Origin: Candidatus Moraniibacteriota bacterium
Lineage (GTDB): Bacteria > Patescibacteriota > Minisyncoccia > Moranbacterales > UBA1568
Direction: 5' to 3'
Assembly: GCA_963743885.1 (NCBI GenBank)
Contig: CAVURJ010000002.1
Coordinates: forward strand, 36,721-100,720
DNA length: 64,000 bases
Each line of letters starts with the position of its first letter. The first letter of the stretch is position 1. The notes beneath the pieces are model-generated. The model worked only from the letters and a program-made list of their open reading frames with translations. It did no database searches and was not told where the DNA came from. A program made the translations under genes and the position numbers. Positions 14,402-36,321 of the stretch are shown piece by piece.

Positions 14402-14528
14402 CAAATTCAAAATTACAAGCTCCAAATAAATCTTAAACTCAAAATTCAAATTCTTGATCCCAGTTTTGTTTTTTGGATTTGATTATTTTGAAATTATTTG
14501 GAAATTGAGATTTTGAATTTTGGATTTG
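14402..14528. repeat. Interspersed inverted-repeat element, copy A (~125 bp)
   Basis: Left arm CAAATTCAAAATTACAAGCTCCAAATAAATC. Right arm ATTATTTGGAAATTGAGATTTTGAATTTTGGATTTG is its imperfect reverse complement. Conserved internal words TTTGGATTTGA. Exactly fills the gap between the M16 stop and the AI-2E start. Confidence 0.8.
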
Positions 14529-14536
14529 AAAAAGAT

Positions 14537-15562
14537 ATGTCTATGAACGAGCAAGTGAATATCGGGACGAAGATAGCCTTGCGGCTGGCTCTTTTGGCTG
14601 TGGCGGCCTATGTGCTCTATCTCGTCCGTGATGTCGTGCTCGTCGTACTGTTTGCTATTCTGACGGCGGCGGCGCTCTCGCCAATGATTGCCAAGCTGCG
14701 GAAGTGGGGACTGTCCCGCACTGGCGCCGTGATCATCACGTATGCCGTCGTGCTTTTGGGTGGCATCGCGCTCATCTCTGTATTCCTTCCGCTCTTCTTT
14801 TCGGAAGTGAAGAATTTCCTCGCGAACTGGCCAGAGTATACCAAGCGTCTTGATGTATTCTTCTCGGGCATCCAATCATATCTCTCGGCTATTGGTATCG
14901 ATTTTCAGAAGGACCAGCTGTTCCTGGATATCGAGAAAAATATCGCGACCGGGTTTTCGGGCATTTTCACAACGACATTCAATCTGTTCCAGAGCTTCAT
15001 CCATCTGATCGGATTCTTCTTCCTCGCACTCTACCTTTCGCTCGAGGAGAAAGGTATTGAGAAGACATTCCTCATGCTGACGCCGGAAGAATATCATGCG
15101 CATGCCCTCTCCATCGCTTCGCGCATGCAGGGCAAGGTGAGCCAGTGGCTTTTTGGTCAGGCGATCCTTATGCTTATCGCTTTCGCTATGTACTATATCG
15201 GACTCCTCATCCTCGGCGTGCCGTATGCGCTCGCCATCGCCTTTTTCGGTGGTGTGATGGAGATCCTGCCGTATATTGGACCGGTGCTCGCCGCCATCCC
15301 GGCGGTGCTCGTCGGGCTGCTTGTGTCACCATCGCTCGCGATGCTTTCGCTCCTCTTCTATCTCATCGCCCACCAGGTGGAGGCACATATCGTGGCGCCG
15401 CAGGTGATGAAACATTCGGCGGGCCTGAGCCCGGTGGTGCTTATCGTCGCTATCCTGATTGGTGCGGAGCTCGCTGGCGCGCTCGGCATCATACTGGCCG
15501 TCCCGACCGCAATGATCCTCTCGGTATTTGTGGAAGACATGCTCGTCAAACGGGAGGTTTGA
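14537..15562 (+). CDS. AI-2E family transporter (PerM/YdiK-like permease)
   Basis: Eight predicted TM helices. C-terminal 'HQVEAHIVAPQVMKHSAGLSPVVLIVAILIGAELAGALGIILAVPTAMIL' is typical of the UPF0118/AI-2E family. Start taken at ATG 14537; the ORF-track TTG at 14498 lies inside the repeat. Confidence 0.75.
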   Translation: MSMNEQVNIGTKIALRLALLAVAAYVLYLVRDVVLVVLFAILTAAALSPMIAKLRKWGLSRTGAVIITYAVVLLGGIALISVFLPLFFSEVKNFLANWPEYTKRLDVFFSGIQSYLSAIGIDFQKDQLFLDIEKNIATGFSGIFTTTFNLFQSFIHLIGFFFLALYLSLEEKGIEKTFLMLTPEEYHAHALSIASRMQGKVSQWLFGQAILMLIAFAMYYIGLLILGVPYALAIAFFGGVMEILPYIGPVLAAIPAVLVGLLVSPSLAMLSLLFYLIAHQVEAHIVAPQVMKHSAGLSPVVLIVAILIGAELAGALGIILAVPTAMILSVFVEDMLVKREV

Positions 15563-15573
15563 CTACACTAAAT

Positions 15574-15697
15574 CAAAAATTCAAAATTACAAGCTCCAAA
15601 TAAATCTCAAATCATAATTTCAAAACAGAAAACCGGCGATTTTTGGATTTTGAACATTAGAATTTATTTGGAAATTGAGATTTTGAGTTTTGAATTT
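15574..15697. repeat. Interspersed inverted-repeat element, copy B
   Basis: Same arms as copy A (CAAAAATTCAAAATTACAAGCTCCAAATAAATC ... AATTTATTTGGAAATTGAGATTTTGAGTTTTGAATTT). Ends 9 nt before the rsmI ATG. Confidence 0.8.
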
Positions 15698-15706
15698 AAA
15701 ATAGTT

Positions 15707-16381
15707 ATGAAAGAATCTGGTACTCTCTATATCGTTGCTACTCCGATAGGGAATCTCGGTGACGTTACATTACGGGCGCTTGAGACGCTCAAGATCGTCG
15801 ATGCAGTGCTTTCCGAGGATACACGCGTGGCTGGAAAGCTTCTCATGCATTTCGAGATCAAGAAGACGCTTATCTCGTGCCATGAGCATACAGATGAGGG
15901 CAAGCTCGCCGATCTCGTCGCACGCATGGTCGCTGGCGGGTGCTTTGCCTTTGTGTCTGACGCTGGGACGCCGGGACTCTCCGATCCGGGCAATCGGCTG
16001 GTCGCGATGGCGACGGAAGCTGGTATCCGCGTCGTGCCGATCCCGGGTGTGTCCGCGCTCGCTGCCATGGTATCGGTCGCTGGCATCGATATGCGCGAGT
16101 TCATGTTTCTCGGATTCCCGCCGCACAAGAAGGGCCGCGAGACATTTTTTAAGAAAGTGGCCGCCGCTGATATGCCAGTCATTTATTACGAGTCTGTGCA
16201 TCGCGTCGTGAAAAATCTGGAACTTCTAGAATCAATCGCACCCGAGAAGCGCGTCATCCTCGGTCGCGAGCTGACCAAGATGTTTGAGGAGGTCCGCCGT
16301 GGTACGGTCGGTGATATCCGCGCACACTATTGCGAGCACGAGAGCACGGTGAAGGGGGAGTTTGTTATTATAATCCATTAA
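15707..16381 (+). CDS. rsmI: 16S rRNA (cytidine1402-2'-O)-methyltransferase RsmI
   Basis: 'LYIVATPIGNLGDVTLRALETL' and 'VSDAGTPGLSDPG' motifs of the tetrapyrrole-methylase-fold RsmI family. Start at 15707 (MKESGTLYIV). Confidence 0.8.
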   Translation: MKESGTLYIVATPIGNLGDVTLRALETLKIVDAVLSEDTRVAGKLLMHFEIKKTLISCHEHTDEGKLADLVARMVAGGCFAFVSDAGTPGLSDPGNRLVAMATEAGIRVVPIPGVSALAAMVSVAGIDMREFMFLGFPPHKKGRETFFKKVAAADMPVIYYESVHRVVKNLELLESIAPEKRVILGRELTKMFEEVRRGTVGDIRAHYCEHESTVKGEFVIIIH

Positions 16382-16382
16382 T

Positions 16383-16416
16383 CTGTTAACGGGTTCACGA
16401 GTTAACGGGTTATCGG
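16383..16416. repeat. GTTAACG-module repeat (member of the HpaI-site palindromic family)
   Basis: ctGTTAACGggttcacgaGTTAACGggtt, i.e. tandem units built on the 8-bp palindrome CGTTAACG. Confidence 0.6.
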
Positions 16417-16483
16417 AAAGAAAACCTGGATCCCGGCTCGAAGGCCGGGATGACAGAAAGAGAAGATGTTTTTTGGAAAAATG

Positions 16484-16517
16484 AAAAGCCCAGAGGTCGT
16501 TTGACGTGGGCTTTTGG
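16484..16517. terminator. Bidirectional intrinsic terminator
   Basis: aaaagccca...tgggctttt: symmetric stem with an A-run upstream and a T-run downstream. Serves rsmI (+) and the small minus-strand ORF. Confidence 0.65.
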
Positions 16518-16535
16518 TTCCGGTTGACGCGTTGG

Positions 16536-16703
16536 TCAGAACGGAAAGGTTGGGAGGATGGCTTCGGCAAGGTATCCGCCGGCGACCATCAGAAGGATGA
16601 CGAGGGCGAGACCGCCGAATGCTGCGAGCGGAGCCGGAATGTCCTCAAGCGAAAGGGCACGAGGACGATTGAGCGAACCCCAACTGCTGCCATGATTGTT
16701 CAT
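16536..16703 (-). CDS. Small membrane protein, 55 aa (below the ORF-track size cut-off)
   Basis: ATG at 16703 with GGGAG 6 nt upstream. Sequence 'MNNHGSSWGSLNRPRALSLEDIPAPLAAFGGLALVILLMVAGGYLAEAILPTFPF'. Terminator immediately downstream. Confidence 0.35.
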   Translation of the reverse strand: MNNHGSSWGSLNRPRALSLEDIPAPLAAFGGLALVILLMVAGGYLAEAILPTFPF

Positions 16704-16774
16704 GCTATACTCCCAGTAGGTTGAAATGTACTAATGTGTATTATACACCTAAAAATAGATAAAGTCAAGGGCGT

Positions 16775-18235
16775 ATGACTGAAAATACCGAAAACAAGCC
16801 TTTTTATATCACGACGACGCTGCCGTATGTGAACGGCAAGCCGCATGTCGGCTATGCCATGGAAATCATCCAGGCGGACGTCATTGCCCGGTTCCATCGG
16901 CTAGCCGGGGATGAGGTGGTCTTCAATATCGGGACGGATGAGCATGGGCAGAAGATCTATCAGAAGGCGGCCGAGCTCGGCCAGACGCCGCAGGAGTACT
17001 GTGACGCGATGTCGGAGCATTTCCGGGCGCTTCGTGATCTGCTCGGGGTGAGCTTCACACACTTCGTCCGGACGACGGATGAGCATCATATCGCGGCGGC
17101 CCAGGTGTTCTGGCAGCGCTGCGCGGACAATGGAGACATCTATAAGAAGCAGTACCAGGTGAAGTACTGTGTGGGTTGCGAGCTTGAGAAGACGGATTCT
17201 GATCTTGATCATGGCAAGTGTCCGGATCATCCGAACATGGAGCTTGAGTTGATCGATGAAGAGAATTATTTCTTCCGGTTCTCGAAGTACCAGCAGCCGC
17301 TCCTCGATCTCTATGCAGCGCGGCCGGATTTCGTCGTGCCGAGCAATCGGCTGGTAGAGATCAGGAACTTCGTTGAAAAAGGATTGCAGGACTTCAGTAT
17401 CTCGCGTGTGAGAGAGAAGATGCCGTGGGGGATCGCGGTGCCAGGTGATGACAGTCAGGTGATGTATGTCTGGTTCGATGCGCTTGCGAACTACATCACG
17501 ACGCTCGGCTGGCCGGAGAACGAGGCGGACTTCGCGAAATTTTGGCCGGGGACCCAGATCGCCGGCAAGGACAACCTGCGCCAGCAGTCGGCCATGTGGC
17601 AGGCGATGTTGCTTTCCGCTGGTCTTGAGCCGTCGCGGCAGATCCTGATCCATGGGCATATCCTTTCTGCTGGACAGAAGATGTCGAAGAGTCTCGGCAA
17701 CGTAATCGCGCCGGAGGAGCTGACGGAAAAATTCGGTACCGATGGGACGCGCTACCTTCTGCTCGCTTCGGGCAACCTTGAGAGCGATGCTGACATCACG
17801 ATGGAACGTCTGGCGGAGCAGTACAATGCGCATCTCGCCAACGGACTCGGCAATCTCGTGTCGCGGGTGATGAAGCTTTCGGAGAAAATCAGTGAACAGT
17901 CAGCAGCTAACAGTCAGCAAGATGCTGAGAGTACCGAAGGCGAGAAAGTGTTGCTTGATAGCGTGGCAGGATTCATCAGCGAGTATCGTTTCGCTGATGC
18001 ACTCGGCAGGATATGGGAGGTGGTGCGCGAGGCCAACCGCTTCATCGATGAAGAGAAGCCGTGGGAGCTTGTGAAGACCGATCAGGTGAGATTTGATGCG
18101 GTCATGCGGCAGCTTCTGGCCAATATTGCGCTTATCGAAGTGGCACTCCAGCCGCTCCTGCCCGGGACAGCCGAGAAGATCAACCAGGCGCTCGCAACCG
18201 GTGTGACGGAGCCGTTGTTTAAACGTATCGCATAG
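16775..18235 (+). CDS. metG: Methionyl-tRNA synthetase
   Basis: HIGH-region 'PYVNGKPHVGYAMEI', Zn knuckle 'CVGCE...CPDH', KMSKS 'KMSKSLGNVI'. Confidence 0.9.
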   Translation: MTENTENKPFYITTTLPYVNGKPHVGYAMEIIQADVIARFHRLAGDEVVFNIGTDEHGQKIYQKAAELGQTPQEYCDAMSEHFRALRDLLGVSFTHFVRTTDEHHIAAAQVFWQRCADNGDIYKKQYQVKYCVGCELEKTDSDLDHGKCPDHPNMELELIDEENYFFRFSKYQQPLLDLYAARPDFVVPSNRLVEIRNFVEKGLQDFSISRVREKMPWGIAVPGDDSQVMYVWFDALANYITTLGWPENEADFAKFWPGTQIAGKDNLRQQSAMWQAMLLSAGLEPSRQILIHGHILSAGQKMSKSLGNVIAPEELTEKFGTDGTRYLLLASGNLESDADITMERLAEQYNAHLANGLGNLVSRVMKLSEKISEQSAANSQQDAESTEGEKVLLDSVAGFISEYRFADALGRIWEVVREANRFIDEEKPWELVKTDQVRFDAVMRQLLANIALIEVALQPLLPGTAEKINQALATGVTEPLFKRIA

Positions 18236-18254
18236 CTTTTTTTGCTGTATCAAT

Positions 18255-18443
18255 ATGGGAAACGTCTCACTCGATGAAAATGCTGCTCTTGAACGGGAGA
18301 TATCCGATGCGACTGAGGAATTTGTTCGCGATATGGAGCAGATACGGAAGCGGCGTGAAGAACTTCTGGCATCCTGGATGAAGGCAGCAGATGAGAGGCG
18401 GCAGCATGAGATAACAGAGAAGATATATGGCAAAGAATCCTGA
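18255..18443 (+). CDS. Small charged helical hypothetical protein, 62 aa
   Basis: ORF overlaps the start of the next gene by 17 nt. No clear RBS. Call is tentative. Confidence 0.3.
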   Translation: MGNVSLDENAALEREISDATEEFVRDMEQIRKRREELLASWMKAADERRQHEITEKIYGKES

Positions 18444-19857: not shown

Positions 19858-19925
19858 GTATCTAGTATCTTGTATTATGTATGGGGGATTTCATACATGA
19901 TACATAATACAGTATACGTAATACG

Positions 19926-21053: not shown

Positions 21054-21071
21054 CTAAAAAAGTGATATACT
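21043..21071 (+). promoter_or_regulatory. Promoter TTGACA-17-TATACT
   Basis: TTGACA 21043-21048, 17-nt spacer, TATACT 21066-21071. Overlaps the tatD stop, upstream of the 21104 gene. Confidence 0.55.
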
Positions 21072-21103
21072 AGTATTTGAATAACTCTTAGCAGCGTATT
21101 CTT

Positions 21104-21541: not shown

Positions 21542-21640
21542 AGGGTTCTTGACAATTCGTGTGCGTGTTGTATGCTGAGCAGTCGGAAAATCCGGCTGCT
21601 TTTGTTCTTTGAGTCCGCTGTCTTTGAAAGGGGGTGGGAT

Positions 21641-22093: not shown

Positions 22094-22163
22094 GGCGTTC
22101 ATCGGTACGAAGGACGAACCAGATGGGACATGATCCCGTCTGGTATTTTTTTGGACCGATAAA

Positions 22164-22192
22164 TTGACGTCTTTTGGTTTCACTGATAGAAT
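22164..22192 (+). promoter_or_regulatory. atp operon promoter TTGACG-17-TAGAAT
   Basis: -35 22164-22169, 17-nt spacer, -10 22187-22192. About 135 nt upstream of atpB. Confidence 0.55.
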
Positions 22193-23083: not shown

Positions 23084-23095
23084 TTCAGTTTTTCT

Positions 23096-23166
23096 GTTTA
23101 CGGGTTAACGGGCTAACGAGTTAGAAGGTCTATGAACGCGTTAACTCGCAAACTCGTTAACTGGAT
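23096..23166. repeat. GTTAACG-module palindromic repeat (atpB|atpE junction)
   Basis: cgGGTTAACGggctaacgagtt ... aacgCGTTAACtcgcaaactcGTTAACtgg. Left and right halves are reverse complements (aacgagtt/aactcgtt). Confidence 0.6.
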
Positions 23167-23242
23167 AACTGGATTTGGTGGACAGATACGGAAAATCGCT
23201 CTATAATGGTCAAATGTTAGTAAATTAATCAGTTTTAATTAA

Positions 23243-23476
<234 letters not shown>

Positions 23477-23966: not shown

Positions 23967-24107
23967 ATTCAAAATTCAAAATTCAAAATTACAAGCTCCA
24001 AATAAATCACAAATTCTAATTTCAAAACCCAGAACAATATAAGTTACATTTGGATTTTGAGTATTGGAATTTATTTGGAAATTGAGATTTTGGATTTGAG
24101 ATTTCAG
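23966..24107. repeat. Interspersed inverted-repeat element, copy C
   Basis: AAATTCAAAATTCAAAATTCAAAATTACAAGCTCCAAATAAATC ... GAATTTATTTGGAAATTGAGATTTTGGATTTGAGATTTCAG, between atpF and atpH. Confidence 0.8.
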
Positions 24108-24125: not shown

Positions 24126-24527
24126 ATGAGGCTTTCCATAAGACAATATGCGTTGGCGCTCCTCGATATCGAGCAGGGGATGAGTGCTGATGAGGCGAAG
24201 GGAGCCGGAGAGCGATTTGCTCTCTGGCTTTCGCGCCGTGGAGAAGGACGGAAGCTTGCGAAGATCGTAGCGGAAGCGGAAACGATCGCTCGGGATCGGA
24301 GCAATAAGACGGAGGTCGCGATCACGACGGCATTCGAAGCTGATCAGGAGACGAGGGGGATCCTCACGGGATATGCGGAGAAGTTGTTTCCTGGTAAGCA
24401 TATCGAAGCTGAGTTCCGATCCGATCGGGATATCATTGGTGGTATGACGATACGGAGCAGCGAGACGCTGTATGACGGATCGCTCGCCGCCTCGGTGAAA
24501 AAGCTGCGCACAAGTCTCATGAGGTGA
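24126..24527 (+). CDS. atpH: F0F1 ATP synthase subunit delta (short form)
   Basis: OSCP-like C-terminal 'IGGMTIRSSETLYDGSLAASVKKL'. 133 aa. Operon position. Confidence 0.7.
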   Translation: MRLSIRQYALALLDIEQGMSADEAKGAGERFALWLSRRGEGRKLAKIVAEAETIARDRSNKTEVAITTAFEADQETRGILTGYAEKLFPGKHIEAEFRSDRDIIGGMTIRSSETLYDGSLAASVKKLRTSLMR

Positions 24528-24650
24528 TTTAAGATTTTGGATTTAGGATTTAGGAATAGGATCGTCCAAGCCTCCATTCTTGAATCATAAATCTTAAATC
24601 GTGAATCAGATTCTAAATTCTAAATTCTAGATTCTAAATTCAATCGTATG
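24527..24650. repeat. AT-rich heptad tandem-repeat tract (ATTCTAA/ATTCTAG units)
   Basis: gattctaaattctaaattctagattctaaattc plus ggatttaggatttagga. 7-bp period. Lies in the atpH|atpA gap. Confidence 0.6.
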
Positions 24651-26147
24651 TCAAACCCGCTCATCGAAGAACTGAAGAAGCATATATCGGATTTCCATCA
24701 TGCGCCGAAGGCAGAGGCGGTCGGTACCGTGCTCGAAGTCGGTGATGGCGTCGCACGCGTCGCGGGACTTTCCGAGGTTATGGCTTCGGAAATGGTTGAG
24801 TTTGAGAATGGTGTCATGGGTGTAGCCCTCAACCTTGAAGAGGGTGAGGCAGGCGTGATGCTTCTCGGCGAGACAGGCGACCTGCATGAGGGATCGACTG
24901 CCAAGAGCACCGGGAAGATTCTTTCGGTGCCGGTCGGCGATGATATCATCGGCCGTGTGCTCAATGCTCTCGGTCAGCCGATTGACGGTAAGGGCGATAT
25001 CAAGGAAAAGGCTTTCTACCCGGTAGAGAAGATCGCCCCGGGCGTCATCACTCGTCAGGGTGTCAACCAGCCGCTCCAGACCGGTATCAAAGCGATTGAT
25101 GCGCTTATCCCGGTTGGCCGCGGCCAGCGTGAGCTCATCATCGGTGATCGCCAGACTGGCAAGACCGCTGTGGCTATCGATACGATCCTCAACCAGAAGG
25201 GCCAGGATGTCATCTGTATCTATGTCGCTATCGGCCAGAAGGAATCCAAGGTCGCTCGCATCGTCGCTGAACTGACCAAGGGCGGCGCGATGGAGTATAC
25301 GACGGTTGTGGTCGCTGGCGCTTCGGATCCGTCCGCGCTTTCGTTCATCGCTCCGTATGCCGGCTGCGCGCTCGGCGAGTATTTCATGGACCAGGGCAAG
25401 GATGTGCTCGTCATTTACGATGATCTGTCCAAGCATGCGGTCGCGTATCGTCAGATCTCGCTCATTCTCCGTCGTCCGCCGGGACGCGAAGCCTACCCGG
25501 GCGACGTGTTCTATGTACACTCCCGTCTCCTGGAGCGGAGCGCCAAGCTGAACAAGGATTTCGGCGGTGGATCGATCACGGCGCTTCCGATCATCGAGAC
25601 GCAGGCAGGTGATGTGTCGGCCTATATCCCGACCAACGTCATCTCCATCACTGACGGTCAGATCTATCTTGAATCAGACCTGTTCTACAAGGGTATCCGC
25701 CCGGCACTCAACGTCGGTCTTTCGGTTTCCCGCGTGGGTTCGGCTGCACAGATCAAGGCAATGAAGCAGGTGGCGGGTACACTCCGTCTCGATCTCGCTC
25801 AGTTCCGTGAGCTCGAAGCGTTCGCTCAGTTCGGATCGGACCTTGATGAGAAGACCCGTACGCAGATCGAGCGCGGACGACGCGCGACTGAAGTGCTCAA
25901 GCAGCCTCAGTACCAGCCGCTGTCGGTCGAGAAGGAAGTCTGTGTGCTCTACGCGCTTACTCGCGGGCATCTTGATGATGTGAAGGTTGAGGAGATCGGC
26001 CGATTCGAGCGCGAGTTCCTCTCGTATCTTGAGCATGATGGCAAGGAAGTCCTCGATGCGATCGTGAAAGAGAAAGCGTTGACTCCGGAAGTCGAGGAAA
26101 TGATGAAGAAGCATATTGAGGCGTTCAAGAAGAGCTTCGCAGTTTGA
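24648..26147 (+). CDS. atpA: F0F1 ATP synthase subunit alpha
   Basis: Walker A '[15 protein letters not shown]' with alpha-specific flanks. 499 aa. Confidence 0.9.
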
Positions 26148-26149
26148 TT

Positions 26150-26214
26150 ATTAACGGGTTAACGCGTTAACGAGTTGTATTTCTAACACGTTAACTCGCA
26201 AAACTCGTTAACTG
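26150..26214. repeat. GTTAACG-module palindromic repeat (atpA|atpG junction)
   Basis: attaacgGGTTAACGCGTTAACGAGTTg ... cacGTTAACtcgcaaaactcGTTAACtgg. Confidence 0.6.
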
Positions 26215-26229
26215 GAGAATAAGAAACTC

Positions 26230-27150
26230 ATGGCATCTGCACGAGACATCCGAAGGCGCATCAAAGGCGTGAAATCCACGGGTAAGATCACCCGAGCCAT
26301 GGAGATGATTTCGGCTGTCAAAATGCGCAAGGCAGTGCAGGCAGTACTGGCTATCCGTCCGTATGCGGAGAGTGCTATCGAGCTTTTGAAGCGGCTCAAG
26401 GTCGCTGTCGGAAGCGAGAAGCACCCGCTTCTTACGGTGCGGCCGATCAAGAAAGAGCTCTATGTGATCATCACTTCGAATCGTGGATTGTGCGGAGCGT
26501 TCAATGCACAGATTGCGAAGAAAGTGCGCCAGGCGCTCAAAGAAGATGCGGATCGCGAGAAATGTTTCATCACGATCGGTAAGAAGGGGGATGCGTCGGT
26601 CCGCCGATCAGGTGGCGATATCATCGCGTCGTTTCCGGATGTACTCGGAGCACCGAATGCTGAGACGATGCGTCCTATCGCGCGTGTCATCATGGATGAA
26701 TTCGCTTCAGGCCGCGTAGACCGTGTCGTCATGATCTATACCGACTATGTATCCGTGATGCTCCAGCAGGTGAAGGTGCGCGCGCTGCTTCCGGTCAGGC
26801 TCGAAGATACGCAGAAGGCGATGCATGAAATGCAACCAACGACTGACGACGGACGACTGATGACAGAAGAGGGGAAGGGGAAGATTCCGGCGGAGTATGC
26901 GATTGAACCGTCGCCCGCGACCGTGCTCGACCGGATGGTGCCGCGACTCATCGAGATGGAGCTCTATCATGCGATACTCGAGAGCAATGCATCCCAGGAA
27001 GCAGCCCGTATGATGGCGATGCGTAATGCGACCGATGCTGCCAAGGAGATGTCTGCTGATTTGACGCTCGCCTACAACCAGCTCCGCCAGCAGAAGATCA
27101 CGCAAGAGATCGCCGAGCTGTCGGCAGGTATGGCAGCTGTCTCGCGTTAG
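26230..27150 (+). CDS. atpG: F0F1 ATP synthase subunit gamma
   Basis: 'IRRRIKGVKSTGKITRAMEMISAVKMRKA' N-terminus and conserved C-terminal helix 'ITQEIAELSAG'. Confidence 0.85.
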   Translation: MASARDIRRRIKGVKSTGKITRAMEMISAVKMRKAVQAVLAIRPYAESAIELLKRLKVAVGSEKHPLLTVRPIKKELYVIITSNRGLCGAFNAQIAKKVRQALKEDADREKCFITIGKKGDASVRRSGGDIIASFPDVLGAPNAETMRPIARVIMDEFASGRVDRVVMIYTDYVSVMLQQVKVRALLPVRLEDTQKAMHEMQPTTDDGRLMTEEGKGKIPAEYAIEPSPATVLDRMVPRLIEMELYHAILESNASQEAARMMAMRNATDAAKEMSADLTLAYNQLRQQKITQEIAELSAGMAAVSR

Positions 27151-27220
27151 CGAGACCCTGAGCGAAGTCTGCGGAGTCGAAGGGTGATGGTGTTACAATA
27201 GGATTTCAGACTACAGTATC

Positions 27221-27745
27221 ATGAAGAAGACAGCAAAAAATCTGGTAGTGATTCCGAGTGAGCGCATCATCAAGCGTATTTTCTGGCTGCGTGATGAGAA
27301 GGTAATGCTGGATTCTGATTTGGCAGAAATGTATGAGGTAGAAACGAAAGTTTTCAATCAGGCCGTGAAACGCAATATCGATCGATTCCCGAAAGACTTT
27401 ATGTTTCAGCTTACCGTGCAAGAGTATTCAATCTTGAAGTCACAAATTGTGACCTCAAGTTGGGGAGGAAAAAGAAAACTCCCATATGCTTTTACTGAGC
27501 CGGGTGTGGCGATGCTTTCGAGCGTACTCAAGAGCAAGCGGGCAGTTGCAGTGAATATCCAGATTATCCGGACATTTGTCGAGCTGAGAAAGATGCTCGT
27601 AACACATGAGGCGCTTAGGAAGAAGATCGAAGCAATGGAGCAGAAATATGACAAGCGGTTCAGAGCGGTATTTGATGTATTGCGTCAGCTCCTGAAGGAA
27701 GAGACGGAGCCGAAGAAGAAGATAGGGTTTGCTGCGAAGAAGTGA
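27221..27745 (+). CDS. ORF6N-domain protein (KilA-N-related DNA-binding family), inserted in the atp operon
   Basis: 'EKVMLDSDLAEMYEVETKVFNQAVKRNIDRFPKDFMFQLT...SQIVTSSWGGKRKLPYAFTEPGVAMLSSVLKS' matches the ORF6N domain pattern. No good SD. Confidence 0.65.
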   Translation: MKKTAKNLVVIPSERIIKRIFWLRDEKVMLDSDLAEMYEVETKVFNQAVKRNIDRFPKDFMFQLTVQEYSILKSQIVTSSWGGKRKLPYAFTEPGVAMLSSVLKSKRAVAVNIQIIRTFVELRKMLVTHEALRKKIEAMEQKYDKRFRAVFDVLRQLLKEETEPKKKIGFAAKK

Positions 27746-27830
27746 AGCTGGAATTTTGAATCTGGAATCTTGGAGTTCAAAACCAAAATTCTAGATTCTA
27801 AATTCGAGATTCGGATTTAGGAAGTTGTTT
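27745..27830. repeat. AT-rich heptad tandem-repeat tract
   Basis: ggaattttgaatctggaatcttgg...aattctagattctaaattcgagattcggatttagg. 7-bp period, same unit family as 24527-24650. Confidence 0.55.
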
Positions 27831-27835
27831 GGAAA

Positions 27836-27878
27836 AAAGAAAAGCCCCGGCGCGGTTGCGACAGGGCAGGTGTTCGGA
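27836..27878 (-). terminator. Terminator module AAAAAAGAAAAGCCCCGGCGCGGTTG... (minus-strand orientation)
   Basis: On minus: GC-rich hairpin followed by TTTTCTTTTTT. A near-identical ~30-bp module recurs at 34205-34240. Confidence 0.5.
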
Positions 27879-27889
27879 TGATGAAGGCC

Positions 27890-28120
27890 TCAGTCGATGA
27901 CAATCACGAGATCGTTCGGCTTGATAATGCAGAAACCTCCTGTGCCACGAAGATACCCTGCATTGTAGCCGTCGTCATCGGTGGTGAGTTTCTGAAGGAG
28001 CGGGACGACCCCACCTCGCTCGAGATCTGCGATGCAGATGAACTTGGTATGGGAAGGAACCTCAGAAAAACGATGAGCCCTTCTGAAGGTAACTACGAGG
28101 TTGAAGTTAGTGAGTGGCAT
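27890..28120 (-). CDS. Hypothetical small protein, 76 aa (orphan, divergent from the operon)
   Basis: AGGAG 9 nt upstream of the ATG on minus. Shared terminator module downstream. No recognisable family. Confidence 0.45.
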   Translation of the reverse strand: MPLTNFNLVVTFRRAHRFSEVPSHTKFICIADLERGGVVPLLQKLTTDDDGYNAGYLRGTGGFCIIKPNDLVIVID

Positions 28121-28264
28121 GCTCGGCTCCTATATGCGTCTTGGGTTGGTAAGAGTGCGACTGCTCATACTGGTATAAAAACGAAAAAAAGTCAATCCCA
28201 GTTACATGCGGATATGTAACGGGACAAGTATCTCATAACGTAATTAATCAAGATTTTTCCTTAA

Positions 28265-29665
<1,401 letters not shown>

Positions 29666-29687
29666 TTACTGTTGTTTGGTTAACGAG

Positions 29688-29740
29688 TTTGGCGAGTTAA
29701 CGAGTTGAAAAACCCGTGAACCCGTTAACGCGTTAACGGA
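29688..29740. repeat. GTTAACG-module palindromic repeat (atpD|atpC junction)
   Basis: gGTTAACGAGTTtggcgaGTTAACGAGTTgaaaaacccgtgaacccGTTAACGCGTTAACGg. Confidence 0.6.
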
Positions 29741-29746
29741 TCAACA

Positions 29747-30196
29747 ATGAAATCCATGAATATAAAGTTCAAAATCGTCACTCCAGAACGTACCGTGGTA
29801 GAACAGGAAGTCTACCAAGCGACTCTTCCGGTCGAGGATGGCGAAGTGACCATCTTGCCTGAGCATGTGCCATATGTCGGCGCGCTCAAGGCTGGTGAGA
29901 TTATGCTTCGCCGTGAGATGAATGGCGAGCCGGAGAGCCTGGCGACGTCAGGTGGCTTCGTCGAATTCCATGACAATACGATGGTGATTCTCGCTGATAC
30001 AGCTGAGCGGGCCGAGGAGATTGACCTCGAGCGGGCTGAAGCAGCACGTAAGCGGGCCGAGGAACTGAAGGAAGAGCGTATCCATATGGACGATGAGGAA
30101 TATGCTCGTACAGCGGCGCTTATTGAGAAAGAGATGGCGCGCGTGAGAGTAGCCAAGAAGCATCATAGCCGGCACGGAGTCTCTCTCGGAGAATAG
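29747..30196 (+). CDS. atpC: F0F1 ATP synthase subunit epsilon
   Basis: 'FKIVTPERTVVEQEVYQATLPVEDGEVTILPEHVPYVGALKAGEI' beta-sandwich N-domain followed by a helical C-terminus. Confidence 0.85.
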   Translation: MKSMNIKFKIVTPERTVVEQEVYQATLPVEDGEVTILPEHVPYVGALKAGEIMLRREMNGEPESLATSGGFVEFHDNTMVILADTAERAEEIDLERAEAARKRAEELKEERIHMDDEEYARTAALIEKEMARVRVAKKHHSRHGVSLGE

Positions 30197-30214
30197 ATCT
30201 TGTAGCTTCAGAAA

Positions 30215-30255
30215 AGAAAAAAGCGCGTCCATGAGGCTTCAATGGGCGCGCTTTG
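30215..30255. terminator. Bidirectional intrinsic terminator (end of atp operon / convergent minus gene)
   Basis: aaaaaagcgcgtccat...atgggcgcgcttt: A-run + 7-bp GC stem + T-run. Confidence 0.7.
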
Positions 30256-30263
30256 GGTGTCCG

Positions 30264-30968: not shown

Positions 30969-31018
30969 GATGATCTCCTTGTAGATGTTGCGGAAAAAAT
31001 ATTGTCAAACAACAGCGT

Positions 31019-31047
31019 ATTATACATCCATTGTATTTAAAAGTCAA
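31019..31047 (-). promoter_or_regulatory. Consensus promoter TTGACT-17-TATAAT (minus strand) for the 30264-30968 gene
   Basis: Minus-strand -10 TATAAT = plus 31019-31024. -35 TTGACT = plus 31042-31047. 17-nt spacer. Confidence 0.65.
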
Positions 31048-31238
31048 GCATAGTTTCTTGAAAAAAAGCCTCATTTCCGGTAGAGTGGGTAGGTGATACA
31101 TGATTCTACCCCTATGCCCGGTAGTAGAACTTCGACCGGGTATTGGAATCCTTATTATAAAGCATGATTTCGGAGAGTAAACATTAATGGAGGCTTTCTC
31201 AGTTTTTAAAAAGAATTGTCGAAGTTTCACTACCGGGT

Positions 31239-34145
31239 ATGGCTCAAAAAAACTACAATCCGAAGGCAATCGAGGCGAAGTGGCAGAAGTATTGGGAGAA
31301 GCATGGTACGTATCGTCAGTATAGCCGCAAGCAGGGCTTCTATGTGCTCGATATGTTCCCGTATCCGTCGGGAGCAGGACTCCATGTCGGTCATCCGCGC
31401 GGATATATTGCGACGGATGTTGTGGCGCGCTTCAAGCAGCTTGAGGGTTGCGGTGTGCTCCATCCGATGGGATGGGACGCGTTCGGGTTGCCAGCTGAAC
31501 AGTATGCTCTCAAGAACAAGGTGCATCCGTCGATCGCGACCAAGAAGAATGTCGCGACGTTCAAGAAGCAATTGGAGAAGATCGGTCTCACCTATGATTG
31601 GGAGCGCGAGATCAATACGACCGATCCGGAATATTATAAGTGGACACAGTGGATCTTCCTAGAGATGTGGAAGCGGGGCTTGGCATACGAATCGAACGAA
31701 CCGATCAATTGGTGCCCGTCATGCAAGACCGGTCTTGCCAATGAGGATTTGGAGCAGGGGAAGTGCGAGCGTTGCGGGACAGTCGTCGAGAAGCGGCCAC
31801 TCCGCCAGTGGGTGCTTGCCATGACCAAGTATGCTGACCGGTTGCTCAAGGATCTCGATAGTAAGGACCTTGATTGGAGCGAGTCGATCAAGGAACAGCA
31901 GCGTAATTGGATCGGACGGAGCGAAGGTGCTGAGGTTGCCTTTCCGATTGTCGGGACCGAAGAAGAGCTCCGCGTGTATACAACGCGCGTCGATACGATT
32001 TTCGGGTGTACGTACGTCGTGGTCGCGCCTGAGCATTCTTTGCTGAAGAATCAAGAATCAAGAATCAAGAATCAAGAGGAAGTCAGAAAGTATATAAAGA
32101 AGGCGGCGAACAAGTCTGATCTTGAGAGGACGGAACTGGCGAAAGAGAAGACCGGCGTGAAGCTCGAGGGTGTCGAGGCGATCAACCCATTCGATGGGGC
32201 GAAGGTCCCGGTGTATGTCGCGGACTATGTGCTCGGTTCCTACGGTACAGGCGCGGTGATGGCGGTCCCGGCGCATGATGAGCGCGATTTTGAGTTTGCG
32301 AAGAAATATAGTTTGCCGATCAAGCTTTCAGTGGCGCCGTTTTTTTCTGACACAGAAGGTAAAGATGCTGTACGAAAAGACAAGCCGACGGTGCGACGGC
32401 GGACCGCTTATGCGCTCGTCAAGCATTGGAGCGAGGACAAATATATTTGCCTGGATTGGGAGAAATTCGGATGGCATTCGGGGATCATCGGTGGCATCGA
32501 AGAAGGCGAGGACCCGATTGTGGCGGCTTCTCGTGAAATTATAGAAGAGACTGGCTATCAGAATCCGGTATTTGTAAAGTATATCGGGGAAGCGATGCAC
32601 AATTATTTTTATGCCGCTCACAAGGAAGTGAACCGTTATGCGGATGGTGTTGGGATGCTGTTTCAATTGAAGAACGGTAAATGGAACGAGCCAGACAAAG
32701 AAGAAACAAAAAACCATAAGGCAGTCTGGATTTCTGGCGACGAGATGACATCATTCCTTACACTGAGAAACTTCCAATATATGTGGGAAGTCTTGAAAAA
32801 GGGAGAGGAGTGCTATACAGAAGACGGGGTACTCATCGATTCTGGAGAGTTCACTGGGCTTGCGTCGGCAGAGGCAAGGAAGAAGATGACAGCATGGCTC
32901 TCGAAGGAGAAACTTGGCAAGAAGAAGGTGAACTACAAGATGCGTGATTGGACGTTTAGTCGGCAGCGCTATTGGGGCGAGCCGATCCCGCTCGTACATT
33001 GTGAGTTCTGTGGCATCGTGCCGGTGCCGGAGAAAGACCTTCCGCTTCTTCTTCCAAAGGTGAAGTCGTATGAGCCGACCGATACGGGCGAATCGCCGCT
33101 TGCGGCTATCTCGAAGTGGGTGAATACCAAGTGCCCGCAGTGCAAGGGGCCGGCCAAGCGCGAGACCAATACCATGCCGCAGTGGGCGGGTTCGAGCTGG
33201 TACTATCTTCGCTATATCGATCCGAAGAACAAGAAGGCTCTTGTCGACAAGAAGAAGGAGCAGAAGATGATGCCGGTTGATCTCTATGTCGGCGGGACGG
33301 AGCATGCGACAAGACACCTTCTCTATGCACGTTTTTGGCACAAGTTCCTCTATGATATCAAGATCGTCTCTGGCAAGGAGCCGTTCAAGAAGCTCGTGAA
33401 CCAGGGGCTTATCGTGGCATCTGATGGCCGTAAGATGAGCAAGCGCTGGGGCAACGTGGTCAATCCAGACGATATGATCGCAGAGTTCGGGGCGGACGCA
33501 TTCCGTACCTATGAGATGTTCATGGGGCCTTTTACACAGTCGATTGCCTGGAATACCGAAGGTCTTGTCGGGACGCGGCGGTTCCTTGAGAAAGTCTGGA
33601 GACTTTCTCAGAAAACAGTTAACAGTCAACAATCAACGGGGAATAAGAATATTGAGACGTTGCTTCATAAGACAATCAAGAGCGTGACAGAAGATATTGA
33701 AGGATTCAAGTTCAATACAGCGATTAGTTCGCTCATGATTCTTGTGAACGCCCTCGAAAAAGAGCCAGAAATATCACTCATCACTTATCGGACATCTCTT
33801 ATCCTCTTAAGTCCGTTCGCCCCGCATATCGCGGAAGAGCTGTGGTCGCAATTGAAGAATCACCCTTCGACAGGCTCAGGGTCATCCAAAACGGAAGAGA
33901 AATCAATATTCCTTGCTGAGTGGCCGAAGTGGGACAAGAAGAAAATCGTTGAGGAGACGGTGAATGTCGCCGTACAGGTGAATGGTAAGGTGCGCGCTGT
34001 GATCGCGGTCGCCGCTGGAAGCGATGAGGCTGCTGTGAAGGCGCAGGCGCTCGCCGATGCGAACGTACAGACACATATCGCCGGTAAGAACGTCCGTAAG
34101 GTAATCTACGTTCCTGGACGAATCTTCAATATCGTTGTGGGATAA
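31239..34145 (+). CDS. leuS: Leucyl-tRNA synthetase carrying an in-frame inserted NUDIX hydrolase domain
   Basis: 'PYPSGAGLHVGHPRGY' HIGH region, 'TTRVDTIFGCTYVVVAPEH' editing-domain T-rich region, 'KMSKRWGNVV' KMSKS. About 163 aa inserted between 'YSLPIKLSV' and 'DGVLIDSGEFTGL' contains a perfect Nudix box 'GGIEEGEDPIVAASREIIEETGY'. Confidence 0.9.
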   Translation: MAQKNYNPKAIEAKWQKYWEKHGTYRQYSRKQGFYVLDMFPYPSGAGLHVGHPRGYIATDVVARFKQLEGCGVLHPMGWDAFGLPAEQYALKNKVHPSIATKKNVATFKKQLEKIGLTYDWEREINTTDPEYYKWTQWIFLEMWKRGLAYESNEPINWCPSCKTGLANEDLEQGKCERCGTVVEKRPLRQWVLAMTKYADRLLKDLDSKDLDWSESIKEQQRNWIGRSEGAEVAFPIVGTEEELRVYTTRVDTIFGCTYVVVAPEHSLLKNQESRIKNQEEVRKYIKKAANKSDLERTELAKEKTGVKLEGVEAINPFDGAKVPVYVADYVLGSYGTGAVMAVPAHDERDFEFAKKYSLPIKLSVAPFFSDTEGKDAVRKDKPTVRRRTAYALVKHWSEDKYICLDWEKFGWHSGIIGGIEEGEDPIVAASREIIEETGYQNPVFVKYIGEAMHNYFYAAHKEVNRYADGVGMLFQLKNGKWNEPDKEETKNHKAVWISGDEMTSFLTLRNFQYMWEVLKKGEECYTEDGVLIDSGEFTGLASAEARKKMTAWLSKEKLGKKKVNYKMRDWTFSRQRYWGEPIPLVHCEFCGIVPVPEKDLPLLLPKVKSYEPTDTGESPLAAISKWVNTKCPQCKGPAKRETNTMPQWAGSSWYYLRYIDPKNKKALVDKKKEQKMMPVDLYVGGTEHATRHLLYARFWHKFLYDIKIVSGKEPFKKLVNQGLIVASDGRKMSKRWGNVVNPDDMIAEFGADAFRTYEMFMGPFTQSIAWNTEGLVGTRRFLEKVWRLSQKTVNSQQSTGNKNIETLLHKTIKSVTEDIEGFKFNTAISSLMILVNALEKEPEISLITYRTSLILLSPFAPHIAEELWSQLKNHPSTGSGSSKTEEKSIFLAEWPKWDKKKIVEETVNVAVQVNGKVRAVIAVAAGSDEAAVKAQALADANVQTHIAGKNVRKVIYVPGRIFNIVVG

Positions 34146-34204
34146 AGCAATCATCTATCAGTATAGAAAATACCAGGTATGTACTTGGTATTTTTTATGT
34201 TCTA

Positions 34205-34240
34205 AAAAAGAAATGCCCCGGCGCGGTTGTGCGTCGGGGC
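34205..34240 (-). terminator. Terminator module AAAAAAGAAATGCCCCGGCGCGGTTG...CGGGGC (minus-strand orientation)
   Basis: gccccg...cggggc hairpin with a T-run on minus. Near-identical to the module at 27836-27878. Confidence 0.55.
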
Positions 34241-34262
34241 TGGTCGTGGCTTCGAAGGCCGG

Positions 34263-34622
34263 TCACTCTTGTTTCGGGCACTCGGTCACGATGGTGTCCT
34301 CGATGAGGGAGACGGCTACTGCCGAGAATCTGGCTGTCTTGTAGCTCGGTTCTGCCATGACCTTTTGTTCTACATCACGCAGCATGTCGGCTTTGAACGG
34401 CTGGTTGCAAAGCGTAATGGTCGCATTGCCGAAACCGAAGTTGCTGTTGTTATCCTTCAGCATGTAGCTGACAAGATAGGTGTGCTTGTGCAGCTCGATT
34501 GGCTTGCTGGTCGCTGCTGGTTTTGAACTAAGGAAGAACATGAATGCCATGCCGGCTATGAGGTAGGTAATCGCGATTGCCCAAAGCGCGACATGAGTTG
34601 TTTCAACCTTTTTTGATTCCAC
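34263..34622 (-). CDS. Small membrane-anchored hypothetical protein, 119 aa (GTG start)
   Basis: AAGGAG 7 nt upstream of GTG. N-terminal TM 'VALWAIAITYLIAGMAFMFFL'. Shared terminator module downstream. The longer ORF-track version lacks an RBS. Confidence 0.5.
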   Translation of the reverse strand: MESKKVETTHVALWAIAITYLIAGMAFMFFLSSKPAATSKPIELHKHTYLVSYMLKDNNSNFGFGNATITLCNQPFKADMLRDVEQKVMAEPSYKTARFSAVAVSLIEDTIVTECPKQE

Positions 34623-34799
34623 GATGAATCTCCTTGTGAAGTGTGGGGCCGAACAGAATTGGTAAATCAACAACATTCTATGGTAGCACAAAAACATGAA
34701 AAAGTCAATGGCGGTGGATTGGAAATATTCTAAAAATGGCTTGAAATAGCGGAAATGGTATACTAGAAGTATAAAAGATTCTTTTAGGATTTCCTTGTT

Positions 34800-35444
34800 A
34801 TGAAGATTTTCCTTGATTTTGATCGGACGCTCTTTGATCTCGATGCGTTCCATAAGGAAGCGCGCGAGACCTTAGAGGGGCAAGGGCTTCCAGAAGGGGC
34901 GTACCTCGCTTCGAAGCAGCCGTTCTCGACGGCGAGCGGTATGCCTGGCGGGTCATATACGCCGGAGCGGCACGAAGCCGAGCTCAAGAGGTTGTTTCCT
35001 GGAAACGGATCGTCCCTCGCTTCTTTCGTGCGCGGGCTCAATAGGGATGGGCGGCGGTTTGTGTTCCCTGGCGCGGAGGATTTTCTCCGTGAGATAGCGG
35101 AGCACGAGTTGATCATTCTTACCTTCGGCAACGATGAGTATCAGCGGTACAAGATTGCTGGCAGCGGATTGGAAGGCTTGGTCGATCGGATCATCGTGAC
35201 GGACGAGGATAAGTGGGCGGCTATGCGTGCAGAGCTCTCTTTCGGCGAGGAGGCAATCTTCGTGGATGACCACGGTGGATATTTCTTAGAAAAGCCGGAG
35301 GATATCCCGGTTTGCGGCATACACCTGGTGCGCGCCGGCCAGGAAGATTGTGGGAACTGCCTCGCGCATACGCATGTCAGTGATCTCGCTGAGACCTTGC
35401 AGACCATACGAAAGTATCCTCTCAAACAAGCGGATATCCGATAG
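34800..35444 (+). CDS. HAD-superfamily hydrolase
   Basis: Motif I 'FLDFDRTLFD' (DxDxT), motif III/IV region 'FVDDHGG'. 214 aa. Confidence 0.65.
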   Translation: MKIFLDFDRTLFDLDAFHKEARETLEGQGLPEGAYLASKQPFSTASGMPGGSYTPERHEAELKRLFPGNGSSLASFVRGLNRDGRRFVFPGAEDFLREIAEHELIILTFGNDEYQRYKIAGSGLEGLVDRIIVTDEDKWAAMRAELSFGEEAIFVDDHGGYFLEKPEDIPVCGIHLVRAGQEDCGNCLAHTHVSDLAETLQTIRKYPLKQADIR

Positions 35445-35525
35445 GAATTTTCAGGCTGGAGCCAGGGTAGAATGAAATCCGTTTTCGCGGTAGAATGGGT
35501 TGGTAATGGCTATACGGAAAACAGC

Positions 35526-36197
35526 ATGAAAACGACTATTCCCCAGTATCTCCCGCTTGATAAGCCGCTCATTATCTTTGACCTCGAGACGACCGGACTG
35601 GCTGCTGGCGAGGATAAAATCATTGAGCTTGCGTATGAGAAGATTCTGCCGGATGGCGAGATCATTGCATACTGCCAGCGCATCAACCCAGGGCGGCCGA
35701 TTCCTCCGGAGTCGAGCCAGGTGAACGGCATCTACGACAAGGATGTTGCTCTCGCTCCGAGCTTTGCGACGCTCTGCTATGAGCTCTGGAATATGTTCGA
35801 TGGTTCCGATGTTGGCGGCTTCAATGTAACCGGATTTGATCTTCCGTTCTTGCGCGGCGAGTTCGCGACGGTCGGGAAGAACTTCGATTTTTCGCAGAAG
35901 AAGGTGCTTGATGCGAAGATCCTCTATCACAAGATGTCGGCGCGTGACATGTTCGCGCCGAGGAACCTCAGTGCGGCGTACAAGCTCTATTGTGGCAAGG
36001 AACATGTGACAGCGCATACGGGTGCTGGTGACGTGCGGGTGACGGTCGAGATCCTGGAGAAGCAGCTTGAGAAGTATCCGGAGTTCCGCAGCTGGGATTA
36101 CATCGCCGAGCTCCATGGCAACAAGAAGCTCCTCGAGTCGGCTAAGACGGAGCATGCGCCTTTGGTGGAGAAGGGAATGCTAGGCACGTTGTTTTGA
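35526..36197 (+). CDS. DnaQ-like 3'-5' exonuclease (DEDDh family)
   Basis: Exo I 'LIIFDLETTGL', Exo II 'GFNVTGFDLPFL', Exo III 'HTGAGDVRVTVEIL'. Start chosen at ATG 35526, 16 aa before Exo I. The ORF track's 35472 is an alternative. Confidence 0.75.
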   Translation: MKTTIPQYLPLDKPLIIFDLETTGLAAGEDKIIELAYEKILPDGEIIAYCQRINPGRPIPPESSQVNGIYDKDVALAPSFATLCYELWNMFDGSDVGGFNVTGFDLPFLRGEFATVGKNFDFSQKKVLDAKILYHKMSARDMFAPRNLSAAYKLYCGKEHVTAHTGAGDVRVTVEILEKQLEKYPEFRSWDYIAELHGNKKLLESAKTEHAPLVEKGMLGTLF

Positions 36198-36198
36198 A

Positions 36199-36321
36199 GT
36201 TCAAAATTCAAAATAACAAGCTCCAAATAAATTCAAAAACATAATTTTCAAAACGTGAGATCTTATTTTGATTTTGATATTATGATTTATTTGGAAATTG
36301 AGATTTTGAATTTGTAATTTG
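36199..36321. repeat. Interspersed inverted-repeat element, copy D
   Basis: GTTCAAAATTCAAAATAACAAGCTCCAAATAAATTC ... GATTTATTTGGAAATTGAGATTTTGAATTTGTAATTTG. Ends 9 nt before the uppP ATG. Confidence 0.8.

Follow-up and report, generated by a model that had tools for sequence, protein, structure and literature searches.

What kind of element occupies the spaces between genes in a stretch of Candidatus Moraniibacteriota DNA, and why does it sit so exactly between one stop codon and the next start codon? The stretch, hereafter the window, comprises 64 kb of assembly GCA_963743885.1 (contig CAVURJ010000002.1, positions 36,721 to 100,720) and carries four copies, c1 to c4, of a single inverted-repeat element. 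An earlier note on this DNA proposed a MITE-like mobile repeat (MITE, miniature inverted-repeat transposable element), a structured intercistronic RNA, or an internal promoter or protein-binding array. We find that in related genomes the same inverted arms of diverged heptamers enclose a 120-aa gene of the PF05635 four-helix-bundle family. The copies in the window lack this open reading frame (ORF) and are probably non-autonomous members of a Candidatus Moranbacteria palindromic family, the full form of which is a PF05635 cassette of the intervening sequence (IVS) type. Directly observed are the dispersal of the family, the homology of its members to the cassette ends and ORF start, the co-occurrence of both forms on one contig, polymorphism at orthologous sites, and constraint on the arms.

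Four ORF-less copies and their wider family

The window is the scope within which copies in the source genome were counted. An nhmmer profile built from 18 family members detected c1 to c4 with E values of 1e-30 to 1e-33 each (Table 1), and nothing else in the window scored strongly. Exact matches there number four for the left core ACAAGCTCCAAATAAAT and four for the right core TTATTTGGAAATTGAGATTTTG, at the positions tabulated, compared with chance expectations from shuffled sequence of 0.09 and 0.00, respectively, even with three mismatches permitted. Alignment of the four copies revealed invariant arms (~60 nt, ~20% G+C) and variable centres. The arms are imperfect reverse complements with a mismatched core, and c1 to c4 fold as imperfect hairpins of 41-50 bp (-29 to -37 kcal/mol, z -3.1 to -5.6), with similar folding of the complementary strand. 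The left end of c3 has three or more additional AATTCAA heptamers. The number, placement and imperfect arm complementarity of the copies described in the earlier note are thus confirmed. Short, non-coding, multi-copy, dispersed and bounded by terminal inverted repeats, the element has the general features of a MITE; the extended stem formed by these repeats is also a feature of IVS elements, although all four copies lie between protein-coding genes and not in an rRNA helix.

Each copy fills the gap between a stop codon and the next ATG, as had been noted before. The termini of the flanking proteins are collinear with those of their orthologues, so c1 to c4 lie strictly between native stop and start codons. 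A contribution of the element to the upstream stop codon was considered and ruled out for all four, since the protein C-termini match those of orthologues. Between the end of the profile match and the ATG lie 9, 9, 21 and 9 nt in c1, c2, c3 and c4, respectively. Such stop-to-start filling is what is expected of any insertion into a 3-60-nt spacer, a point that had been missed.

Outside the window, the exact right arm was found in three GTDB species representatives and in 22 JGI metagenome contigs, the contigs ranging from 29 to 53% G+C (sequences outside the window carry L numbers). Most of the matches belong to complete hairpins, the left core lying 60-95 nt upstream, and one contig (L026) contains three ORF-less copies within 9.3 kb. 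Overall, some 20 contigs outside the window that resemble Moranbacteria carry these arms, with copies at non-orthologous sites in many of the genomes. Four metagenome hits (L009, L012, L013 and L022) were set aside as apparent chance or coding matches. The right arm had no match in viral contigs, which gave no sign of a phage vector; ten viral-contig matches to the left 17-mer were rejected as chance matches in coding DNA. Two of the GTDB representatives are metagenome-assembled genomes (MAGs) titled 'uncultured Bdellovibrionales' (CAZIBB01, L001/L002; CAYOIM01, L004/L005), and the third is a Moranbacteria MAG. L004 is syntenic with the window over an ORF6N gene, atpD, atpC and the leucyl-tRNA synthetase (LeuRS) gene, at 67-79% nucleotide identity, and the 'Bdellovibrionales' label is probably wrong for CAYOIM01.

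PF05635 cassettes with the same arms

In L003, the arms are separated by 405 nt containing a frameshifted PF05635 ORF, between two subunit genes of 2-oxoacid:ferredoxin oxidoreductase (POR). A search with the repaired L003 protein returned intact 120-aa versions, 83-97% identical, at the POR alpha/beta gap of at least four further lineages (L049/L050, L053-L055, L057/L059 and L058), all of them flanked by the arms of the family studied here. The ATG of the ORF immediately follows ...ACAAGCTCCAAATAAATyCAA, and the right arm spans the interval between the ORF stop codon and the ATG of the gene that follows. In L053-L055, this arm (1864-1925; GGAGCTTGT, also given as ATTTATTTGGAGCTTGTAATTTT) is the perfect complement of the left core, so the GGAAATTGAG mismatch, invariant in the window copies, is a lineage variant and not a requirement of the cassette. 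This link to PF05635 and IVS-type cassettes was missed in the earlier note. PF05635 is a large family: among the candidates scored for one member, more than 6000 relatives were found at E<=1e-20.

When the ORF interior is removed, the cassettes align end to end with c1 to c4, an alignment that extends into the ORF over its first ~25 nt (CAAATGGAAAAAGTTCAAAAAAC versus CAAATCATAATTTCAAAAC). The retention of this ORF start points to the copies being internal-deletion derivatives of the cassette, or of a common ancestor of that kind. A longer form with the same ends, as expected of a MITE parent, is present, although its ORF belongs to PF05635 and is not a known transposase. At the POR site, the proportion of nonsynonymous differences (pN) in this ORF is 0.06-0.10, compared with a synonymous proportion (pS) of 0.63-0.80; dN/dS is ~0.05 for the two computable pairs, pS being saturated in the other four. 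Strong purifying selection acts on the cassette ORF. Between these same genomes, synonymous sites have reached saturation and yet the non-coding arms have hardly changed, indicating that the arms are constrained or continually renewed, and not drifting.

Both forms occur together on L059, a 19-kb contig with the L057 cassette. It contains the ORF-carrying copy and six ORF-less copies with exact arms, of which five occupy suf operon gaps and the sixth follows a U32 peptidase gene. As in the window, hairpins of the GTTAACG and GAATTAAGAAT types are also present on this contig.

Close homologues of the window's AI-2E transporter bear Candidatus Moranbacteria/Moraniibacteriota labels. Orthologous sites were compared in relatives syntenic with the window, with AI-2E transporter identities of 91% (L028/L029), 76% (L030) and 75% (L031/L048). 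The atpF/atpH gap, 159 nt long and occupied by c3 in the window, is 3 nt in L028, L030 and L031, which identifies c3 as an insertion. At the M16 peptidase/AI-2E gap, where the window has c1, the closest relative (L029) has a PF05635 gene with GAATCTAGAATC arms, and L030 and L031 have gaps of 58-78 nt. The AI-2E/rsmI gap (c2) contains a hairpin in all three relatives, of a different or weakly related family (nhmmer E ~1e-8 for those of L028 and L030), and a GTATC-family hairpin follows the exonuclease gene in L048, at the position of c4. The parA/parB gap of the window holds a PF05635 gene with GAATCAAGAAT arms; PF05635 is conserved there in L042-L047 and L048, with arms that follow each genome's own family (the window's in L042, GTATC in L048), and L024 has a reversed, ORF-less copy of the studied family in its place. 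Occupancy is thus polymorphic, with atpF/atpH empty in three relatives and both parA/parB and M16/AI-2E occupied differently. A specificity of the protein for its arms was considered for the parA/parB subfamily and is unsupported, as the arms differ between genomes at 79-87% protein identity.

Coding sequences contain half-copies only, without the hairpin. The word-related, in-frame sequence in tgt that the earlier note had pointed out is real but weak (nhmmer E ~1e-5). It encodes ...EFPISNFQFPNNDQNLNDQNEE..., has no hairpin, and lies at a site of variable ~19-aa insertion in tgt across four genomes. In L004, LeuRS carries 16 additional in-frame residues (QNLNFQINPKFENSKS) corresponding to the reverse complement of the right arm, which the window LeuRS lacks. 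At another LeuRS position, the window has (AAGAATC)x4, coding KNQESRIKNQE, and L004 has (CGAATAT)x4 of equal length. An apparent half-copy also lies within mnmA of L006. As a separate observation, the window LeuRS has a ~120-aa insert with an apparent Nudix-box motif (GGIEEGEDPIVAASREIIEETGY) that is absent from the L004 orthologue.

The family is one of several in its surroundings. The window has ~52% G+C, with nearly all genes on one strand, and reading of all its intergenic gaps revealed at least five hairpin families with inverted arrays of 7-8-nt units, of which at least four had been overlooked (Table 1). Nearly every gap of the atp operon is occupied by some hairpin family, and relatives have their own families at the same gaps. 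Two ORF-carrying PF05635 cassettes with other arms are also present. The arms of the parA/parB cassette are inverted GAATCAAGAAT-type heptamers with 88% complementarity; the second cassette has an A/C-rich left arm and a G/T-rich right arm, 73% complementary. Four of the five arm families that are ORF-less in the window (the studied family, GAATCAA, GATTCTA and GTATC) also flank some PF05635 gene.

Table 1 Coordinates of the hairpin copies, cassettes and other features of the window.
Feature	Position	Strand	Left core or arm	Right core or arm	Context
c1, ORF-less hairpin element	14397-14527	+	14415-14431	14494-14515	M16 peptidase (stop 14396) / AI-2E transporter (ATG 14537)
c2	15570-15697	+	15589-15605	15664-15685	AI-2E transporter (stop 15562) / rsmI (ATG 15707)
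c3	23972-24104	+	23991-24007	24071-24092	atpF (stop 23966) / atpH (ATG 24126)
c4	36197-36320	+	36216-36232	36287-36308	RNase T-like exonuclease (stop 36197) / uppP/BacA (ATG 36330)
In-frame half-element	8786-8856	+			tgt; (AATTTCC)x4, then pieces of the right-arm reverse complement
ORF-carrying cassette, other arm family	39299-39721	+	39299-39330	39690-39721	PF05635 gene 39318-39704, parA/parB gap
Second ORF-carrying cassette	61841-62328	+	61841-61888	62281-62328	PF05635 gene 61891-62250
GTTAACG-type hairpins	16380-16415, 23095-23175, 26143-26215, 29679-29752				intergenic
GATTCTA-type hairpins	13085-13125, 24526-24647, 27744-27825				intergenic
GAATCAA-type hairpin	38394-38492				intergenic
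GTATC-type hairpins	19858-19924, also near 3000-3050				intergenic
G+C-rich repeat	37097-37185, 27150-27220				
LeuRS	31239-34145				insert at about 32390-32800
(AAGAATC)x4	32046-32077				within LeuRS
ORF6N-domain gene	27221-27745				between atpG and atpD
113-aa ORF	27878-28219				between atpG and atpD
tRNA-Leu(CAA)	38140-38223	-	38090-38121	38244-38275	flanked by inverted palindromes
Giant ORF, 5212 aa	41654-57292				
Giant ORF, 1492 aa	57324-61802				

Several further features of the window were recorded. The gene with an ORF6N domain (Pfam 1e-34) and a 113-aa ORF that matches nothing in Pfam form a segment with repeat hairpins at its borders; L004, which is syntenic, also has the ORF6N gene, and L031 has only a 108-nt G+C-rich hairpin at that gap. 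A G+C-rich repeat of a different style (GTCATCCTGAGCGAAGCGAAGGATC ... GCTCGGAATGACAT) occurs twice in the window and forms a hairpin in the uppP/folD gap; the atpG/atpD gap of L031 is filled by a close relative of this repeat (L031 19890-19990). The tRNA-Leu(CAA) gene is flanked by inverted CCTGCCTGCCGGCAGGCAGG palindromes, and the same palindrome occurs inside the AI-2E/rsmI hairpin of L028/L029. Two giant ORFs have long internal repeats: the 1492-aa ORF contains ~13 tandem 225-nt units with a GDVNGDG-like motif, and the G+C content within the 5212-aa ORF reaches ~0.60. Canonical TTGACA-17-TATAAT promoters occur, for example, near 5040, 21043, 23179 and 41600.

Weighing a mobile family against functional alternatives

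Among the three options of the earlier note, the MITE-like repeat is the best supported, by the dispersed copies, the atpF/atpH polymorphism, the in-gene half-copies and the ORF-carrying parent form. In the pathway that we propose, the family would spread, or be copied, into short spacers between co-transcribed genes, and each copy would fill its gap because only insertions exactly between stop and start survive. As part of the operon mRNA, the copy would then form an imperfect hairpin of 41-50 bp, which RNase III may cut, separating the cistrons, if 23S rRNA intervening sequences are a guide. The base of the hairpin would also bring the upstream stop codon and the downstream ATG together, so that coupling of the two genes could survive the insertion.

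Several points weigh against this proposal. Comparison of filled and empty sites gave no consistent target-site duplication or defined insertion footprint, the sole candidate duplication being CTGAAG on both sides of c3, and no transposase gene was present in any locus listing examined. We know of no demonstrated mobility function for PF05635, and the PF05635 genes at the POR and parA/parB sites are vertically inherited and not visibly mobile. Several gaps have a hairpin in every genome examined, with a different family in each. This pattern fits selection for 'some hairpin here', gene conversion or repeated invasion equally well. Finally, a purely DNA-level palindromic element does not predict the orientation of the copies, which is biased with respect to transcription.

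This bias was tallied from gene contexts read by hand, a copy being counted as forward when its left arm lies by the upstream stop and its right arm by the downstream ATG. Nineteen copies are forward (four in the window, six in L059, three in L026, and one each in L058, L001, L010, L019, L025 and L027) and six are reverse (L002, L005, L016, L014, L020 and L024, of which L005 and L016 represent one locus in two relatives). A further copy, in L018, has convergent genes on either side, and the orientation in L008 is unassigned and outside the ratio. The 19:6 ratio corresponds to a binomial p of 0.015, or 0.007 with L005/L016 counted once, for copies that are not independent. All ten ORF-less copies of the window and L059 are co-oriented with transcription, and in 13 of 16 forward copies whose sequences were read for this purpose, 20-24 nt separate GAGATTTTG from the ATG. 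The co-orientation hints at an RNA-level constraint, and together with the persistence of a hairpin at certain gaps it leaves room for an RNA-level role.

The strongest alternative, which we nevertheless judge unlikely, is a selected intercistronic RNA module that acts in RNase III punctuation, in 3'-end stability of the upstream cistron, or in stop/start proximity for coupled translation, with copies that are alike through duplication or gene conversion and not through selfish spread. Beyond orientation and spacing, it would account for the hairpins with differing sequences at AI-2E/rsmI in all four genomes compared and at atpA/atpG in each of the four with sequence spanning that gap (window, L010, L030 and L031), for the preservation of the arms where synonymous sites are saturated, and for the lack of full hairpins among coding insertions. 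It is less easily reconciled with the absence of c3 from three relatives, whose operon works with a 3-nt atpF/atpH gap, with the six reverse copies, and with derivation from an ORF-carrying cassette, which is a classic signature of a non-autonomous element. Analysis of 18 copies by RNAalifold gave no compensatory pairs; these copies were chosen by their exact right arm, making the test uninformative for the core. The transcribed strand folded better in 9 of the 18 copies, giving no signal. In a search of the window against Rfam, only tRNA-Leu passed its gathering threshold and no rRNA was found; the best match for c1 and c2 was to the hairpin of a plant miRNA, scoring 22-23 bits where the threshold is 90, and no Rfam family matched the element by gathering threshold or by E value. 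A scan of the window gave no terminator-like site coinciding with any copy. Of the structured RNA suggested earlier, the long hairpins and the co-orientation thus stand, and compensatory change and a folding advantage of the transcribed strand do not appear.

A role as an internal promoter, or as a protein-binding or cruciform array acting at the level of DNA, for instance for a nucleoid protein or regulator, is very improbable. The conserved right arm contains TTGAGA, usable as a -35 element, and marginal sigma-70 matches were obtained at two of the four copies: c2 (TTGAGA-16-TAAAAT, 10/12) and c3 (TTGAGA at 24096, just 3' of the conserved core, 9/12). However, c1 and c4 gave none, the -10 part would fall in the non-conserved flank, and the scan was not enriched over the window (17 sites compared with 13 +/- 3.9 in shuffles), where real promoters are of the canonical kind. 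Conservation of the specific arm sequence across genomes, including the mismatched core, would suit a binding site, but this core is replaced by a perfect complement in L053-L055. The promoter or binding-array option of the earlier note therefore finds little support.

A translational role had been argued from the lack of Shine-Dalgarno (SD) sites in the four gaps, on the premise that genes elsewhere usually have strong AGGAG sites. The premise is not borne out. With a threshold of <=-5 kcal/mol for the anti-SD duplex in the region -20 to -4, an SD-like site precedes 7 of 35 curated window starts, and 27% of random window 17-mers pass the same threshold, so that such sites are commoner in random sequence than before genes. 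As SD-less starts are the rule in this genome, the four genes downstream of copies are not special, and the argument fails; the element does not replace an SD site in a genome that hardly uses them. Separately, a count from upstream sequences showed a strong preference for T at position -1 of window starts (~60%). A translation-initiation enhancer standing in for the missing SD of the downstream gene is thus the least credible explanation: in all four window copies, the U/G-rich right arm does stop 9-21 nt short of the ATG, but any insertion into so short a spacer would trivially adjoin an ATG, no copy precedes most SD-less genes, relatives lack the element at the orthologous atpH, AI-2E and uppP-position genes, and reverse copies place the other arm beside the start codon.

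Relation to known elements and significance

No description of these elements in Patescibacteria was found in the literature searched. Their closest known kind is the S23p-type IVS of 23S rRNA, as in Coxiella burnetii and Leptospira (PMC4990558). In the Coxiella IVS, an S23p (PF05635) ORF lies in the loop of a 28-bp terminal-repeat stem that is cut by RNase III, and tandem heptamers vary in number (PMC4990558). PF05635 ORFs have also been found in rRNA insertions of Candidate Phyla Radiation (CPR) bacteria (10.1101/2024.02.27.582315). The family described here shares the long stem of terminal inverted repeats with tandem heptamers of varying number, a full form with the PF05635 ORF in its loop, the existence of ORF-less and decaying-ORF versions, and a distribution suggestive of horizontal or selfish spread. 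It differs in occupying spacers of protein-coding operons (atp, suf, POR and parAB), with half-copies in genes, instead of rRNA helices, and in its many copies per genome; RNase III excision is proposed here only by analogy. Its ORF is under strong purifying selection, whereas that of Coxiella has been described as decaying (PMC4990558).

In behaviour, the ORF-less copies resemble bacterial MITEs and Rickettsia palindromic elements. Like Correia/nemis, ERIC and RUP, they are non-coding, ~100-150 bp long, bounded by imperfect terminal inverted repeats, located in operon spacers and, as we propose, transcribed as hairpins, with presence/absence polymorphism and apparent internal deletion from a longer ORF-carrying form. 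Correia/nemis elements (Neisseria), ERIC (enterobacteria) and RUP are MITEs co-transcribed in operons. Unlike them, our family has no detected target-site duplication, arms that are arrays of diverged heptamers, PF05635 and not a transposase as the sole ORF between its arms, and no sequence similarity to any of them. Rickettsia palindromic elements (RPEs) are palindromes of ~100-150 bp found in a reduced genome both between genes and in frame within them, where they add a peptide segment. Palindromic size, reduced genome and the combination of intergenic and in-frame locations are common to both; the sequences are unrelated, the coding insertions here are half-copies without a hairpin, and we know of no ORF-carrying parent of RPEs.

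Heptamer periodicity is a feature of TAACTGA repeats and of similar tandem heptamer repeats, the STRR, of cyanobacteria. TAACTGA repeats have been described upstream of start codons in Beggiatoaceae, Cyanobacteria and Bacteroidetes (PMC4679880). The 7-nt periodicity, the position a few nucleotides from start codons without a canonical ribosome-binding site, indels in 7-nt steps, occasional in-frame runs in genes and a patchy distribution suggestive of transfer are all shared. In those sequences, however, one heptamer is repeated directly and almost never has an inverted counterpart. In the present family, which is linked to PF05635, the heptamers are diverged and stand in two inverted arrays that pair into a hairpin around a conserved core free of repeats, and the AATTCAA runs of the outer arms, at least three units in c3, are each matched by an inverted array. 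REP and REPIN sequences are G+C-rich palindromes of 20-40 bp with GTAG or CGTC tags and a Y1/HUH transposase (RAYT). As in REP/BIME and REPIN-RAYT systems, the palindromic intergenic repeats are species-specific, the same gaps are filled by different sequences in relatives, and a single-copy protein gene flanked by the repeat is a proposed mobiliser; in contrast, the arms here are A+T-rich and far longer, bear no GTAG or CGTC tag, and are accompanied by no transposase in the locus listings.

To our knowledge, neither IVS elements nor the PF05635 'four helix bundle protein' family have had an established origin or function for decades, and a function of PF05635 ('IVS protein'/Avd-like) is known only within diversity-generating retroelements. 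In the present data, a cassette of IVS type lies outside rRNA and is subject to purifying selection, and numerous ORF-less derivatives accompany it in the same genome. This is the autonomous/non-autonomous pattern that defines mobile-element families, and it makes the idea that the IVS ORF is a mobility factor directly testable. For the annotation of CPR genomes, it means that much 'intergenic' DNA of these small genomes, and some odd low-complexity loops in essential proteins (LeuRS, tgt and MnmA), are repeat material; assemblies probably break at such material, since many relatives are represented by very short contigs. Operons in these organisms may be punctuated by long hairpins.

A broader and more speculative model, which we put forward tentatively and hold to be rather doubtful, would make PF05635 proteins the trans-acting component of a widespread class of heptamer-armed hairpin elements. 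The cassettes would be autonomous, and would give rise to the operon hairpins, ORF-less rRNA IVSs and in-frame half-copies as non-autonomous products. Binding of the protein to the arms, in the form of DNA or of an RNA hairpin, would drive their copying or genome-wide homogenisation, giving each genome its own arm families. If true, this model would answer a proposal of 1993 (cited in PMC4990558) in which a mobility component is the product of the IVS ORF.

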